Source: a virus
Lineage: Duplodnaviria; Caudoviricetes
Length of the DNA: 48,699 bases
Reading direction: 5' to 3' (one strand)
Virus record (IMG/VR): IMGVR_UViG_3300035008_000005
Location: 1 to 48,699 of that record
Shown here piece by piece: positions 1-35,684 of the stretch (positions are counted from its first letter, which is position 1; each line of letters opens with the position of its first letter). Made by a program: the position numbers and the translations under genes. The notes beneath the pieces were generated by a model that was given only the letters and a program-made list of their open reading frames with translations, did no database searches and was not told where the DNA came from.

Positions 1-405
1 ATGCAGGCGCTGCGTCAGGGCGTGGACCCGATGGATGCACCGAAGGGCGATTGGACGGGCTATTACGAGTGGCTGGACCCGATGCTGTTTCACCCGGGAC
101 GGTGGGCGATCATCCCCGACATTCCCGGCGCCCCTTCCCAGCTCAACGACGGCTTGCTGAACGACTGGCCTTTCGGGGATCGCGGGGCGCCGGTGTGGCA
201 CATGGACGGACCGCTAGATCGTCTGGCGCGCCTTTGCGAGAAATACGCTCGCGTATGCATCGGCTGGATCGGCGACCCGAAGAAAGAGCCGGTGGGCTGC
301 GAGGCCTATTTTCGGCGCATGGACGAGGTTGCCGCCCTGATGGGCAATACGTGGCACCCGCTGCACATGCTGCGCGGGACGCTCGTCGCTCGGCAATATC
401 CATGA
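1..405 (+). pseudogene. 5' part of interrupted TGT/DpdA-like (tRNA-guanine transglycosylase-like) phage protein; probably also truncated by the window edge
   Basis: Motifs WAIIPD, APVWH, RVCIG, LHMLRG; stops at ...RQYP-TGA and continues at 759 with FVSVDSTSLAQN (family-type PFxSxDST motif). Confidence 0.65.
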
Positions 406-546
406 AGAAGCCGCAGGCCTGAAAAGGCAAAAGGACCGACCCAAAGGGCCGGTCCTCCGGTTCAACCGGCGGTCTGGCGACCGCGATCTCACTATTCGCA
501 CCAGAGGAATCGCACGCCAGACCGCCATTTGCAAGGAAATTGCACA

Positions 547-624
547 GTGGTCCGCGTTCGCGCTTATACCCGTGTGCGGTTCGGCAGTGTGGAGCACGTG
601 TGCGCCCACTGGCGTTCGCGCTGA
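547..624 (+). CDS. 25-aa basic peptide MVRVRAYTRVRFGSVEHVCAHWRSR inside the insertion
   Basis: GTG start with AAGGA SD at 533-537; followed by a terminator; below the ORF-track length cutoff. Confidence 0.6.
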   Translation: MVRVRAYTRVRFGSVEHVCAHWRSR

Positions 625-684
625 CAGGGTAGCCTGATCCAGCAACAGCCGTGACCTACGGGCGCCACGGTCCTATCAGCACCT

Positions 685-711
685 AGGGCGGCTTCGGTCG
701 CCCTTCTCTTT
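685..711 (+). terminator. Intrinsic terminator
   Basis: AGGGCGGC-TTCG-GTCGCCCT followed by TCTCTTT. Confidence 0.65.
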
Positions 712-758
712 GCCCACATTCCGTGTGTGGTATCTTAAGTGAATAATGTCCATATCCA

Positions 759-989
759 TTCGTCAGCGTGGACAGCACGAGCCTTGCGCAGAACGGGCAC
801 CGCTATGACTGCGAGGGTGACAACTATGCTGGCCGCGCCCGCTACGCCGACCGCCTCGAAGCCGGTAATTTCGCTAACCGACTTTGCCGCAAGATGCAGC
901 GAAATCGTTTCGCAGCACAGCGGCCACCAAGCCCACCGCCAACTCGACCTGCTGGTTACCGAGACCCTGTGCAGCTTGGGCTACTCTGA
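759..989 (+). pseudogene. 3' part of the interrupted TGT/DpdA-like gene
   Basis: FVSVDSTSLAQNG...QLGLL; in-frame TAA at 744 upstream; joins 1-402 in frame. Confidence 0.65.
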
Positions 990-5356: not shown

Positions 5357-5713
5357 TCATGCGGCCAGCTTTTCGCGGAGGGCATAGCCTTCAAGCGGCC
5401 AAAGCTGCTTGATTGCGTCCTCGTAAGCGAAGCGGTTGCCCTTCTCCTGATCGAAGTTCTCGGGCGACGCCGGGGCGCTCTTCCCGATGACAGTGAAGCC
5501 GTTCTGCATAACCAAGATGCAGATGGTCAGGATAGCGAGCGGGTTGCTCGCCTGAGCATGGTCCGCGCCGGGGTTGAGGGCGCTGAGGGCCGACCCCGCC
5601 GAGAAATAATGCTCCTCCGCGATCTTTGCCTTCATGTCGTCGAGCGAAACGCGCGGGTGAGTTGCACGGCTGGCGCTGAAAGCTTCCGTGGCTTCGAGGG
5701 TAGGACTGTCCAT
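5357..5713 (-). CDS. Phage N4 Gp49/Sf6 gp66 family protein (Acb4-like)
   Basis: LTICILVMQNGFTVIGKSAPASPENFD...AYEDAIKQLWPLEGY signature. Confidence 0.85.
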   Translation of the reverse strand: MDSPTLEATEAFSASRATHPRVSLDDMKAKIAEEHYFSAGSALSALNPGADHAQASNPLAILTICILVMQNGFTVIGKSAPASPENFDQEKGNRFAYEDAIKQLWPLEGYALREKLAA

Positions 5714-7198: not shown

Positions 7199-8940
7199 AC
7201 CTGCCTCCACAGCGTGCCGTTGAACACGAACTCATAGACCCCGCCGTTCGCAGCGGTGATGTTCGATCCCGAGGTGGTGGTGAACTGATTGGCGCCGGTG
7301 CCGTGCGTGATCGTCGTGTTAGCGTCCTGCACAATGATCACAAGGCGCTGCCCCAATTCCCCGCCTGTCGCCGTGGCGAAGGACGTGGCCGAACTGTTCG
7401 CTGTCCGCACCGCTGAAATGCGCGTGACCGCAAAGGTCGTCGCGTTCACCGTCCAGAGCGTCGGCACCTGCAGGTTGAACCCGTAGGAGCGGGCGTAATC
7501 GAGCATGTCGAAGCGGGTTGCCGGCGTGTTGCTGGCAGGCAGGTTCGTGGTGATATTCGGCGGGTTATAGGACACCCCCGCCGCCGTGTTGCGCCAGTGC
7601 GCGGCGCCGATCAGCGAATTGCCAACATCGAGCAGCCGCGCGTCAGTCTTCGATTGCAGGCGATAGTTGTTCGTGACCGACGAGCCCGACTTGGGCAACC
7701 AGCGCCCGCCGCGATCAACCCACGTCCATCCCGCTTCCTGATAGTCCGCGCCCGAAACAAGCGCCGTCACGGCCGTGCTCGCCTTGCCGACCCAGTTGCA
7801 CCCGAGCGTGACCAGCGATCCGATGTAGCGAAGCCGGATGCCGATGAGGGTGAAATCCTCGATATTACAGCCGACCATGTTGATGACATACTGGCTATCG
7901 ACGGTGTCCACGGTCGAGCGCGCGCCGAAGTCGCCCCAGATTTGCCCGCCGTCGAGACCGTTGCAGCCGATGAGGTTCGCCTGCCCCCAGATGCGATAGC
8001 CCGCCATGCCAGTGCCGACGACATGCGCGTAGCAGTTGGTGAGCGTGCGGACGATGTCACCCTTCAATTCGAAACCATGCCCCCCGGTCGAGGAAACATG
8101 GACGTTGGTGAAGTCGCAGGAGAAATTGTTGTCGGCCTTGATGCAGCTTCCCGCCGCGCTCTCAAGCCACAGATCGGAGAAACTCGACGCGTAAATCTGG
8201 TCCCCGCCAGCAAGGCCGGAAAGGTCCAGAGCGGTGTCGCAGTCGCCGTAAATGCGGAAGTCGCGCATGGTGACGCGGTAAAGCCCGGTCGGCGATTCCA
8301 GCTTGAGCGCCGGGAGCCCCGTCATTCCATCGCATAGAAGAGCGGACGCCTGCATACCGCGACCCGACCAGAGGCGGTTGTAAGGACCACCGGCGGGGAT
8401 CGTTAGGCTGTCCGTGATTTTATAGGTCTTCTGGGACAGCTTGAAATAACCGACCGCGTCGATCATCGCCTGAATTGCAAGCGTGTCGTCGGTCGTGCCA
8501 TCGCCCACCGCTCCCCACCATTCGACGGTCAGGAAGTCGGCCAGAACCTCGTAGACGTTGCGCGAGACCGTGCCAGAACGGGGGTTTTGGACCCCGACCA
8601 TGGATGCACCGGTGGCGTCAGCGAGCGCCGCAGTGGTGGCAAGGGTGCGCTGCTCATCGGCGACACCGCTGTTATTCAGATACACGGTGACGGTGCCATC
8701 ACCATTGTCTACGGCGAACCCCTCGCCGTCCGTCGTGGCCGCTAGCCCCGCCGACGTGTTCGCGTAGGTCGGACCCGTCATTGATTCGGCGTAGGCTGCG
8801 CTCACCTCCGATGCGCTTGCTGCAACCTCCGCCCGATCGCGCGCAATACGTGACTGGGCCGCGAGAGACGCCGCAAGCTCGGCCCCCGCAGCGGTGATGA
8901 CATAAGCGCCCTCGCGCTTGACGATGATCGCGCGTGTCAT
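7195..8940 (-). CDS. Tail spike/depolymerase with pectate-lyase-like beta-helix
   Basis: WWGAVGDGTTDDTLAIQAMID followed by beta-helix-like repeats. Confidence 0.8.
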   Translation of the reverse strand: MTRAIIVKREGAYVITAAGAELAASLAAQSRIARDRAEVAASASEVSAAYAESMTGPTYANTSAGLAATTDGEGFAVDNGDGTVTVYLNNSGVADEQRTLATTAALADATGASMVGVQNPRSGTVSRNVYEVLADFLTVEWWGAVGDGTTDDTLAIQAMIDAVGYFKLSQKTYKITDSLTIPAGGPYNRLWSGRGMQASALLCDGMTGLPALKLESPTGLYRVTMRDFRIYGDCDTALDLSGLAGGDQIYASSFSDLWLESAAGSCIKADNNFSCDFTNVHVSSTGGHGFELKGDIVRTLTNCYAHVVGTGMAGYRIWGQANLIGCNGLDGGQIWGDFGARSTVDTVDSQYVINMVGCNIEDFTLIGIRLRYIGSLVTLGCNWVGKASTAVTALVSGADYQEAGWTWVDRGGRWLPKSGSSVTNNYRLQSKTDARLLDVGNSLIGAAHWRNTAAGVSYNPPNITTNLPASNTPATRFDMLDYARSYGFNLQVPTLWTVNATTFAVTRISAVRTANSSATSFATATGGELGQRLVIIVQDANTTITHGTGANQFTTTSGSNITAANGGVYEFVFNGTLWRQV

Positions 8941-33580: not shown

Positions 33581-34338
33581 GCTGCGCTTCTCATATTCAT
33601 ATGCGCGTGAGCGCGTGGTGCGGGGCGCCGGATCAATCGGTTCAGGGCTTTGACGTCGACGCCTTCGCCGGCGGTAATGAGTTCCGCGAAAGGCCAATCG
33701 ATCTTGTTCATCGGACCGATCGCGAGGGCGCTTGGGGGGCGACCATGCCAGACCGGCGGGATATTGGCCTGACGACGCGCCTGTTGCGCCGACCGGACAT
33801 GCTCGAGCCTCGCCCGGGCGAAGTCACGCGCCCATGCCTTCGCGTCGGCGTGAACTGTGAACCGCTGCGTGTTGATCGGTTCGATGAGGCTGGGTTGCTT
33901 CGTCGTGAACAGACTGGCGTTTCCGTCGGCGTCGATCAGCACGATTTCTGTGATCGGCACATGCTCGATCGTCATCGGGCTCGGGCTGGGAATGGCGATA
34001 GCCACCTTCCACCCGTCGACGTTCATCGCCGTCATGCCCCCGAGCGCCAGCGTGGGCGTCGTCGCGGGGTTCAGGCTGAGCATCCGGCACTTCCACTGGT
34101 GCGCCGATTCCCATTTCGTTCGCTCGATCCGTCGGGCCGCGCGCCAGAGCTTGTCGGGGGTGTCATCGGTGTGTGCGTCGAGGACGTCGGTTATCTCGGC
34201 GCACAGTTTCGACATTGTTCGGACGTCGGCCATCGAGTTCATAGACGTGTCGAGCGCCTCGTCTATGGGCGCGAAGACCTGCCGGATCGCGATTTCGGCC
34301 GCATAAGGGCCGGCGATGATGATGTCGCGTCGCCTCAT
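33577..34338 (-). CDS. Hypothetical replication-module protein
   Basis: Coupled between methyltransferase and VapE. Confidence 0.65.
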   Translation of the reverse strand: MRRRDIIIAGPYAAEIAIRQVFAPIDEALDTSMNSMADVRTMSKLCAEITDVLDAHTDDTPDKLWRAARRIERTKWESAHQWKCRMLSLNPATTPTLALGGMTAMNVDGWKVAIAIPSPSPMTIEHVPITEIVLIDADGNASLFTTKQPSLIEPINTQRFTVHADAKAWARDFARARLEHVRSAQQARRQANIPPVWHGRPPSALAIGPMNKIDWPFAELITAGEGVDVKALNRLIRRPAPRAHAHMNMRSAA

Positions 34339-35684
34339 GCTGCGAGCCTCCGTTGATCGAGCAGCGCAGCCAGCCGCGCGAGGATCCATTCACCGTTAGA
34401 AGCCGCCCAGCTATTGCCGAGCGCCTTGTATCGGGGGCCATCGGCGGCGGGCTTGCCGCGATATTCGATGTCGGTGAAGCCGTCCGGGAAGTCCTGAAGA
34501 CGCTCGCACTCGGTCGGCGTAAGGCGGCGGACCTGCCAGCCTTGTGCTATCGACGGCCCGGGAAATCCGGTGTCCATTGGGCCGGTGTGGTCGCCGTAAA
34601 ATAGAACATCGGACTGGCGAGCGTCGAATGCCACCGCCATTTGCCCGCCGCCGTTCGCATGGCTCTTGTCGTGCCCCATGCTGCGGAGGGTCGGCGAAGG
34701 GTCGCCGGGATTTCCGATGCCCGTTCCCGGAGCACCGCCGCTTGATCCATCCGCGCGATTGTTCGTCATCGTCGCGCCGCGACTGGCCTGCCGCATGTCG
34801 ATTGGGATTATCGGCGTCCCGCGCCCAGTCCCGTCTTCGCTCGCATCAAAACCCTCGGCGCGGAGGCTATGGGCGACGAAATGCCCACACCCGCCGTTGA
34901 TGTGCTGATCTTCGAGGCCCTGCTTATCGCCGAGCGTCGTGTTGAGCCTCGGGGCGACGTCGTGGCAGTGGATCAAATGTCCGGCTTGGGCCTGATTGTC
35001 ATCTGCGCCACATGTTCCAACGCCATTTGAAGTGAGCGCGGCAACTCGCGTCCCCGTTTCCCGGCGCGGCGCAGTATTCCCAGACAGGCTTTTGCGCTCA
35101 AATAATACCGCTGCGGGATCGGCCCCTTCTCCAAAATCTGCGACAACGAACACACGGCGGCGTCGTTGGGCCACTCCGAAATATTGAGCGTCGAAAACCC
35201 GCCAAGCTGCCCGTGCCCTTGGCCCGGCAACCATACCTGCACTGGGCCATTTTCCGTCGAGTGGCGAACGCAGGGCATCATCTGCCCCGACAAGGCCTCC
35301 CAAGAAACTGCCGAAGGCGTTGTCGGGCATGTTGAGCCAGCCGGGGACGTTTTCGACAAGAAGGTTTCGAGGTCTAATTGCATGTGCTATTTCCATGAAA
35401 CGGAGGGACAGGTTGCCGCGGTCGCCAGCGGTCCCGGCGCGCAGGCCCGCGACGCTGAAATCCTGACAGGGCGGGCCTCCGACGAGCAGGTCGAGCGGGC
35501 CGAAGGCGGATGCGCGTTGCAGGAAGTCGTCGGCCGTCACGTCGCCGAGATTGACCGAATGCGGGAAGCGCGCAGCGAGCACGGCGGAGGGGAATTTTTC
35601 GACCTCGGCGCACCAGACCCAATCGAATTGGGGTCCGCCGAGTTCGGGGGCTCCGATGCCGGAAAAGCAGGATGCGGCTTTCAT
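34335..35684 (-). CDS. C5-cytosine DNA methyltransferase (no adjacent restriction enzyme recognised)
   Basis: FSGIG, GGPPCQDFS, ENV, QRRRRVF, RRLTPTECERLQDFPD, YKALGNS. Confidence 0.95.
   Translation of the reverse strand: MKAASCFSGIGAPELGGPQFDWVWCAEVEKFPSAVLAARFPHSVNLGDVTADDFLQRASAFGPLDLLVGGPPCQDFSVAGLRAGTAGDRGNLSLRFMEIAHAIRPRNLLVENVPGWLNMPDNAFGSFLGGLVGADDALRSPLDGKWPSAGMVAGPRARAAWRVFDAQYFGVAQRRRRVFVVADFGEGADPAAVLFERKSLSGNTAPRRETGTRVAALTSNGVGTCGADDNQAQAGHLIHCHDVAPRLNTTLGDKQGLEDQHINGGCGHFVAHSLRAEGFDASEDGTGRGTPIIPIDMRQASRGATMTNNRADGSSGGAPGTGIGNPGDPSPTLRSMGHDKSHANGGGQMAVAFDARQSDVLFYGDHTGPMDTGFPGPSIAQGWQVRRLTPTECERLQDFPDGFTDIEYRGKPAADGPRYKALGNSWAASNGEWILARLAALLDQRRLAA
34973..35383 (-). CDS. Nested alternate-frame polypeptide (M.EcoHK31I beta-like)
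   Basis: Fully inside the methyltransferase gene; GGAA SD-like; SLSQILE..P.RYYLSAKACLGILRRA.KRG..LP. Confidence 0.7.
   Translation of the reverse strand: MQLDLETFLSKTSPAGSTCPTTPSAVSWEALSGQMMPCVRHSTENGPVQVWLPGQGHGQLGGFSTLNISEWPNDAAVCSLSQILEKGPIPQRYYLSAKACLGILRRAGKRGRELPRSLQMALEHVAQMTIRPKPDI

Follow-up and report, generated by a model that had tools for sequence, protein, structure and literature searches.

The interrupted gene and its insert

The window analysed here, the whole stretch of 48,699 nucleotides, is a temperate tailed prophage, with integrase, repressor, terminase, portal and tail matches among the 63 open reading frames (ORFs) scanned. It also holds a DNA methyltransferase gene at 34338-35684 on the minus strand. 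At its left edge, a TGT/DpdA-like gene is divided by an insert that lies between two copies of an 8-bp repeat. The features of the locus are as follows.

1-402, plus strand: 5' part of the TGT/DpdA-like gene, cut by a TGA at 403-405 (PHROG 887, E 3e-15; upstream DNA in locus L045; fold of homologue L003)
396-403, no strand assigned: left-hand copy of the 8-bp target duplication, ATATCCAT (complete relatives also have 8-bp duplications)
404-751, no strand assigned: almost certainly the right-hand 348 nt of an IS1595-family transporter insertion sequence (IS), the left edge being an internal point of the parent (record 5 of run X2; leftward continuation in runs X2 and X8)
427-499, minus strand: predicted antisense RNA of ~72 nt (between the predicted promoter and the minus-strand terminator)
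430-458, minus strand: intrinsic terminator-like hairpin and U-tract, predicted 3' end of the antisense RNA (terminator scan; covariation)
468-526, plus strand: long conserved stem-loop within the small ORF's 5' leader (alignment A2, helices 2 and 3)
506-534, minus strand: predicted sigma70-type antisense promoter (TTG at -35, TG of an extended -10, A at -11, no T at -7)
533-538, plus strand: Shine-Dalgarno-like AAGGAA preceding the small ORF (read from the sequence; alignment A1 conserves the GG)
547-624, plus strand: 25-codon ORF with a GTG start, encoding a basic aromatic peptide (PHROG 21154; 14 invariant residues)
685-710, plus strand: intrinsic terminator of the small-ORF transcript (terminator scan; matching hairpin in 10 of 10 modules)
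727-751, no strand assigned: lone IS1595 terminal inverted repeat, GGACATTATTCACTTAAGATACCAC from the tip (matches the module-side ends of L080 and L053)
752-759, no strand assigned: right copy of the 8-bp target-site duplication (exact repeat of the left copy)
759-989, plus strand: 3' part of the TGT/DpdA-like gene (FVSVDSTSLAQN...), severed from its start (continuous in homologues)

A first-pass annotation of this DNA had described a 356-nt structured element that could be removed precisely from the gene. The repeat at 396-403 and 752-759 was borne out, with no further copy in the window, and removal of 356 nt does yield the fusion ARQYP-FVSVDSTSLAQN in frame, 210 aa counted from the first Met of the window. 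This precise removability is unsurprising, because any target duplication restores the frame once the insert and one copy are deleted. Empty sites, which the annotation had proposed to look for, were readily found: the insert was absent from 14 of 14 viral homologues of the gene's 5' half, and the motif YP-F.S.D(S/A)TSLAQN ran uninterrupted through 12 of them. In L011 and L012, which are identical in sequence and count as one case, one extra T was present at the YP/F point. The joined protein also proved continuous with its relatives, the YP-F.S.D junction pattern being present in 103 of the 120 listed homologues (1,197 in total). Run X1 covers positions 1-1200 in a single contig with zero differences, so that an assembly artefact at the junction is unlikely; X1 may be the source of the window, and neither it nor L045, whose insert is identical, is independent of the window. 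The insertion in the phage gene is real. BLASTn with the insert returned only 22-24-nt flank matches from the phage collection and no match from the plasmid collection, and an exact-pattern search of viral contigs gave no match to insert patterns.

The annotation of the host gene as TGT/DpdA-like was supported by sequence (PHROG 887) and by a model fold, whereas its proposed start at the first Met of the window was not: according to L045 the true start lies ~172 nt upstream of the window, and the full product has ~267 aa. Reading from that start requires the ribosome to shift by +1 at ATG TTT C GAC, which lies 31 nt to the left of position 1 (L045:4379-4394). The same shift at ATG TTT CGA is needed in 6 of 13 viral homologues (L002, L007, L008, L009, L010 and L013), while the other seven are in frame. 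On sequence grounds, the ATG TTT CGA site looks like a programmed frameshift. In L011 (~840) and L012 (~3398), the gene is in frame at the usual site and has CCC TTT CGT C at the YP/F point. YCC_UUU_CG is given as the +1 motif of influenza A and PLEKHM2 in a recent report (10.1101/2024.08.30.610563). The slip site may have been relocated within the gene in L011/L012, although this is one sequence only and could be an error.

The fold was modelled on the frameshift-free homologue L003 minus its first few residues (67 sequences, pLDDT 94). The top structural matches of the model were Cap10 (9ntn, Z 11.9), archaeosine TGT (1iq8, 11.8) and DpdA (7ui4, 11.4), with an rmsd of 3.5-3.9 over 201-204 aligned residues at 9-16% identity; unrelated TIM barrels tied with these to within 1 Z. 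The best Foldseek TM-score was 0.58, again for Cap10. As modelled, the host gene product is a TGT-type TIM barrel. DpdA, archaeosine TGT and Cap10 share this fold as its three closest matches, but the host family is far shorter (about 230-270 aa) and many of its members require the +1 frameshift. The stop codon created by the insertion precedes the nearly invariant Asp of S.DSTS; the analogy with TGT suggests that this Asp is catalytic. Loss of gene function is therefore predicted, with the insert acting as a permanent knockout. No preQ0-synthesis gene was found among the 63 window ORFs scanned with PHROGs. The QLGLL tail of the host protein, considered as a clamp motif, overlaps the frame of the next gene and was given no weight.

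A small gene module inside the insert

The hairpins described in the first-pass annotation are present, including the perfect 12-bp stem 468-479/515-526, and the insert folds more stably than 100 shuffled sequences (z = -5.0). However, the insert is not purely structured or non-coding, as had been supposed. It contains a conserved 25-codon ORF at 547-624 (PHROG 21154, E 1e-7), whose peptide has 14 residues invariant across 14 homologues. The start codon is GTG in the window alone and ATG in all six other runs compared; other changes within the ORF were mostly silent, apart from one Ala-to-Ser and one low-depth His-to-Tyr replacement. The peptide matched nothing in Pfam or the PDB. A query that lay 24 nt upstream of the L029 ORF, in the same frame but without the last eight residues, gave six hits and unnamed clusters below 0.9, results to which we attach little weight. 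The small ORF is in frame with the 5' part of the host gene, the TGA at 403-405 being the sole separator (window 403-624).

In an alignment of eight homologues, 85% of cells were paired and 14 of 25 pairs had changed on both sides. None of 500 shuffles scored as high, a test that kinship can inflate, and slid controls reached 29-51%. The both-side changes fell in helix 2 (8/9 pairs), helix 3 (2/8) and the minus-strand terminator hairpin (4/8); the RNAalifold covariation term was small (-0.12). The stem-loops of the insert are its cargo: a leader stem, the 25-codon ORF, a sense terminator, and a predicted promoter and terminator on the opposite strand. The sense terminator probably lowers transcription of the downstream phage genes (a polar effect). 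Within the terminal repeat, an outward-facing TG-N-TATCTT lies at 728-736; it was not called by the promoter scan, and judged by its motif it could be an extended -10 promoter for the same downstream genes.

Besides that of the window, we found 13 distinct modules of this short type. An IS1595 transposase or a piece of one accompanies 6 of the 13, with no nearby hit in the other seven, and a winged-helix-like gene lies divergently upstream in 11 (tblastn). A longer peptide subfamily (L016-L039, L065-L068) comprises 33-42 aa with a C-terminal QLxF(xF), an ending that we take to resemble a sliding-clamp-binding motif. In several loci of this subfamily, inverted repeats enclose the whole ORF (by eye), and many lie near prophage repressor-like genes. 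We did not find the cargo module in the literature searched, including the main text of PMC5082802, whose supplements could list the ORF.

The minus strand of the module carries predicted signals of its own. In most homologues, the minus-strand version of the 430-458 hairpin is the better fold. Outside this first hairpin, the invariant non-coding columns of a 10-module alignment correspond to window positions 510, 513, 514, 532-534 and 535, and six of these seven read TTG-N17-TG-N-N-A on the minus strand, with fixed spacing. These first 10 modules served to define the promoter pattern, which recurred in all four found later (L063, L064, L080 and L081), against a shuffle rate of 1.2%. Most viral peptide loci (22 of 24) and all QLxF-type genome loci (4 of 4) lack it. 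A T at -7, which the predicted promoter lacks, is missing from most alphaproteobacterial promoters according to PMC8407463. One contig of the module, X19, stems from an RNA library, and strand and transcript ends are not readable from a contig. Together, the promoter pattern and the covarying terminator make an antisense RNA over the small-ORF leader probable. Like the antitoxin of a type I locus, such an RNA would act as a translational repressor of the peptide.

The insert belongs to the IS1595 family

Twenty-four runs contain part of positions 300-860, and seven of them were compared base by base. In six of these seven, the match was to the insert only and the phage gene was absent, barring two short unrelated pieces in X2. 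Record 5 of X2 differs from 404-751 by 14 substitutions and 2 gaps (~95% identity) and forms the end of an element: 2,566 nt of its 2,668-nt contig make up the element, the far end is an inverted copy of 727-754, and the duplication GGTCTTAT lies outside both tips, as interpreted from the loose ends of the contig. Genome searches revealed relatives in 5 of 401 genomes of one family, with four true module matches, and in 12 of 301 genomes of one genus, with three; the weak matches (one of the five and nine of the 12) were generic terminators and were excluded from the module counts.

Two complete relatives were present among the searched genomes, L053 and L080, both with paired terminal repeats, an IS1595 transposase and 8-bp duplications. 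L053 measures 2,499 bp, is flanked by AGCATACA and encodes a transposase that scores 175.8 bits against NF033547 (cut-off 75) and contains the PF12762 and PF12760 domains. L080 measures 2,672 bp, is flanked by AGAGCTCT and has a transposase 90% identical to that of L053; over window positions 429-752 it is 71% identical to the window. A sister element with other cargo, L083, has the 8-bp duplication TATAATCG. The parents are laid out as end repeat, small-ORF module, winged-helix-like gene, transposase and end repeat, over 2.5-2.7 kb. The window repeat at 727-751 agrees with L080's module-side end in 24 of 25 bases and with that of L053 in 21 of 25. The elements may belong to the ISNwi subgroup, whose ISfinder end motif, ggnnatTAT, is fitted by GGACATTAT. 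The paired terminal repeats of L053, L080 and X2 start with GG, a feature of the IS1595 family, for which PMC8101967 also gives 8-bp duplications and a Zn-ribbon plus DDE transposase.

These comparisons indicate that positions 404-751 are almost certainly a fragment of an IS1595-family, cargo-carrying insertion sequence. The first-pass annotation had suggested that homologues might occur at unrelated loci, and the relatives of the insert are indeed the ends of full transposons at unrelated, intergenic sites. Its statement that terminal inverted repeats are missing holds for a pair of ends but overlooked the single IS1595 repeat at 727-751. Likewise, a non-autonomous mobile element with target duplication was the right kind of object, yet not an unrecognised one, since the IS1595 family is known. 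In common with IS1595 transporter elements, the insert has a GG-starting terminal repeat and an 8-bp duplication, and its parents carry a Zn-ribbon plus DDE transposase and cargo; unlike them, the window copy is one-ended, lacks a transposase and has an internal left boundary. A transposase tblastn against the window gave no match, and with a single end only, the window copy is not an intact element. No close full-length donor with a sequenced transposase was found among the runs and genomes searched. Decayed copies were seen as well: in L052 one tip is damaged and the transposase is partial, and transposase pieces are present in L041 and L042. In a prophage locus, a C-terminal piece of an IS1595 transposase (L010:5409-5528) lies ~3 kb from a homologue of the host gene with an intact site.

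Origin of the left join

To the left of 404, X2 and X8 agree at 29 of 30 nt in sequence internal to the element. This internal sequence ends in CCC and the phage flank in CAT, with no end homology shared. Given that the X2/X8 sequence and the phage flank are dissimilar, the left join is blunt and lies exactly at the edge of the duplication; G404 is at most one base common to the join and the lost left tip. A cryptic left end at 404 was rejected, as its 9/25 matches are equalled by 37-44 of 297 positions and thus represent background. The lack of an end-like sequence at 404 is a weak point of a transposase-made left cut.

The GGACA-ended complete elements (L053, L080 and X2) all occupy TGTCA-N8-(T/C)(G/T)ACA sites (3/3; L053:4791-4803 and 7303-7315, L080:2756-2768 and 5441-5453). 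The window site, CGGCA-N8-TCGTC, matches at three of five positions on the left and one of five on the right, a poor fit that might be expected if the insertion event was aberrant. TGTCA-N8-TGACA-like targets mimic the abutted ends of the GGACA-ended elements themselves and also -35 boxes. L052 and L053 share one site, beside a thrS-like gene. In X5, a sister element occupies the target site of X2 in the opposite orientation; an invertible segment, considered because the module end faces opposite flanks of one site, was dismissed as the interiors differ, which makes two insertions in opposite orientation the simpler reading. The apparent target preference was absent from the literature searched.

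We consider it reasonably probable that the left join was made by the transposase in a one-ended event. A transposase supplied in trans would have made an 8-bp staggered cut in the target, one side of which received the true right end and the other an element-internal point. One-ended insertions are known for DDE elements, for example IS911 and the Tn3 family. For IS801, right-end fragments of 229, 360 and 679 nt produced by one-ended transposition are documented in PMC3189936. The window insert resembles these in its true right end, internal left boundary and comparable size; however, IS801 is a rolling-circle element of the IS91 family whose fragments end at a tetranucleotide resembling its left end, whereas the window insert has a DDE parent, an 8-bp duplication and a left boundary that is not end-like. 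The literature searched, mostly open-access and including PMC7835479, contained no one-ended IS1595 products, and it gave no account of the IS1595 transposition mechanism.

The same junction might have arisen if a complete element had inserted normally and ~2.2 kb, from the left tip to 404, had been lost afterwards, through host repair or following a nick at the left tip, with prophage packaging limits favouring the loss. A normal two-ended insertion yields the duplication without special chemistry, decayed copies such as L052, L041 and L042 are common, and G404 may be a remnant of the left repeat, namely its first base. Such a deletion, however, must have stopped 0-1 nt from the edge of the duplication with a microhomology of at most 1 nt, and the right half of the site that complete elements occupy is missing from the window target. 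The sequence itself is compatible with both routes; we regard later loss as the main alternative, though a less likely one. Much less likely still is an established, MITE-like derivative, in which the 348-nt unit would move again and again with fixed ends at 404 and 751. Like MITEs and other non-autonomous IS derivatives, it is short, without a transposase and bounded by a target duplication on both sides, and its one perfect terminal repeat, clean duplication and ~95% identity to copies in many runs would suit that reading. Yet a MITE retains its two terminal repeats and is present several times over, whereas the insert has one repeat and one known copy: no second copy starting at 404 turned up, X2 and X8, the two runs that extend to 404, continue into the parent, no further copies came from the prophage itself, from the phage and plasmid collections or from the genomes searched, and 404 is not end-like.

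The first-pass annotation had offered, as its alternative to a mobile element, a switch removed at the DNA or RNA level. The DpdA-like enzyme would then be recovered through self-splicing, through translational bypass that leads from CCA-UGA to the second CCA, or through programmed excision. Deletion does restore the frame, a stop codon stands directly after the first CCA, and the insert is strongly structured; but frame, stop position and structure are all expected from a target duplication plus a terminator-bearing cargo, and the complete relatives are the ends of full transposons outside genes. A sense terminator lies inside the insert (685-704), and the joint across the insert was absent from the seven runs compared, as contigs, which drop rare variants. 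All nine plus-strand registers of the repeat fail both the GUGYG start and the terminal G, as the annotation had noted, and an Rfam scan of the insert found no family at threshold (best E 0.6). With no boundary rule and no Rfam match, group I and group II introns and known RNA families were set aside. Known translational bypass gaps are, to our knowledge, far shorter than the insert, and the matched CCA codons are explained as a by-product of the duplication, so bypass was rejected too. Any such switch is highly improbable. We thus return to the one-ended reading, in which a 348-nt right-end fragment entered the prophage with an 8-bp duplication through an aberrant reaction and truncated the TGT/DpdA-like gene; as a whole, we regard this account as fairly likely.

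Possible roles of the cargo

Classical type I toxin-antitoxin loci include hok/sok and tisB/istR, and their toxins are mostly hydrophobic. The module shares with such loci a small ORF in a structured predicted mRNA with its own terminator. The type I locus aapA1/IsoA1 of Helicobacter pylori, as described in PMC5416894, has in common with it an ORF of ~25-30 codons, a structured leader, a terminator of its own and, on the opposite strand, an antisense RNA, which in the module is a predicted one. The window peptide nevertheless differs from most type I toxins in being basic and aromatic, without a membrane segment, and the predicted antisense RNA, unlike those of type I loci, ends ~35 nt upstream of the ribosome-binding site. 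By analogy, the peptide may be toxic, a suggestion that we make with some hesitation.

A different role is likewise only tentative, and about as likely. The peptide might regulate the winged-helix-like protein or the transposase, or be a partner of one of them, with the minus-strand promoter and terminator forming an attenuated leader that serves the winged-helix-like gene. The position of that gene, divergent and downstream of the minus-strand terminator in 11 of the 13 other short-type modules, agrees with this. The L063 module, however, has a different upstream gene, longer relatives of the peptide occur in prophage and chromosomal loci without a winged-helix-like gene or transposase, and the winged-helix-like gene seems to own a promoter-like sequence (L047, by eye). 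The winged-helix-like cargo proteins (L053:5340-6128, L052, L054, L055, L040, L041 and L080) begin with RSPxYP, and a model of the protein shows a confident 150-residue N-terminal domain. No NCBIfam or PADLOC family covered it, one member had a weak Pfam match, and Foldseek gave no match at E 0.001; its Atlas cluster has no name, and DUF5343 is the closest family there that does. The label 'winged-helix-like' is our interpretation of the model and the weak family hits. In L040 and L054, the winged-helix-like gene and the module lie directly 3' of a uvrA-like gene, without a transposase.

A reading that joins all of these elements would see a new alphaproteobacterial family of antisense-controlled type I loci with a basic toxin of 25-42 residues, a QLxF subfamily, and mobilisation by one-ended transposition of a 348-nt IS1595 piece. 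In that joint reading, the clamp-like QLxF(xF) ending suggests that the second subfamily may block replication. We consider the combination as a whole unlikely. If it were true, the transposase would drop the module at new sites as a 348-nt mini-element, and the window would hold the first one-ended product of the IS1595 family.

Significance

The idea that a structured switch removes itself from a DNA-modification gene falls. In its place stands, at the strength argued above, a natural one-ended IS1595 insertion that is clean and retains its duplication, and that bears on IS1595 transposition and target choice. The parent family is known; its new aspects would be a junction with one end, a preference for certain targets and a microgene under predicted antisense control. 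The cargo itself is a widespread microprotein with a conserved predicted antisense promoter and terminator, and as such a candidate type I toxin-antitoxin system or regulator.
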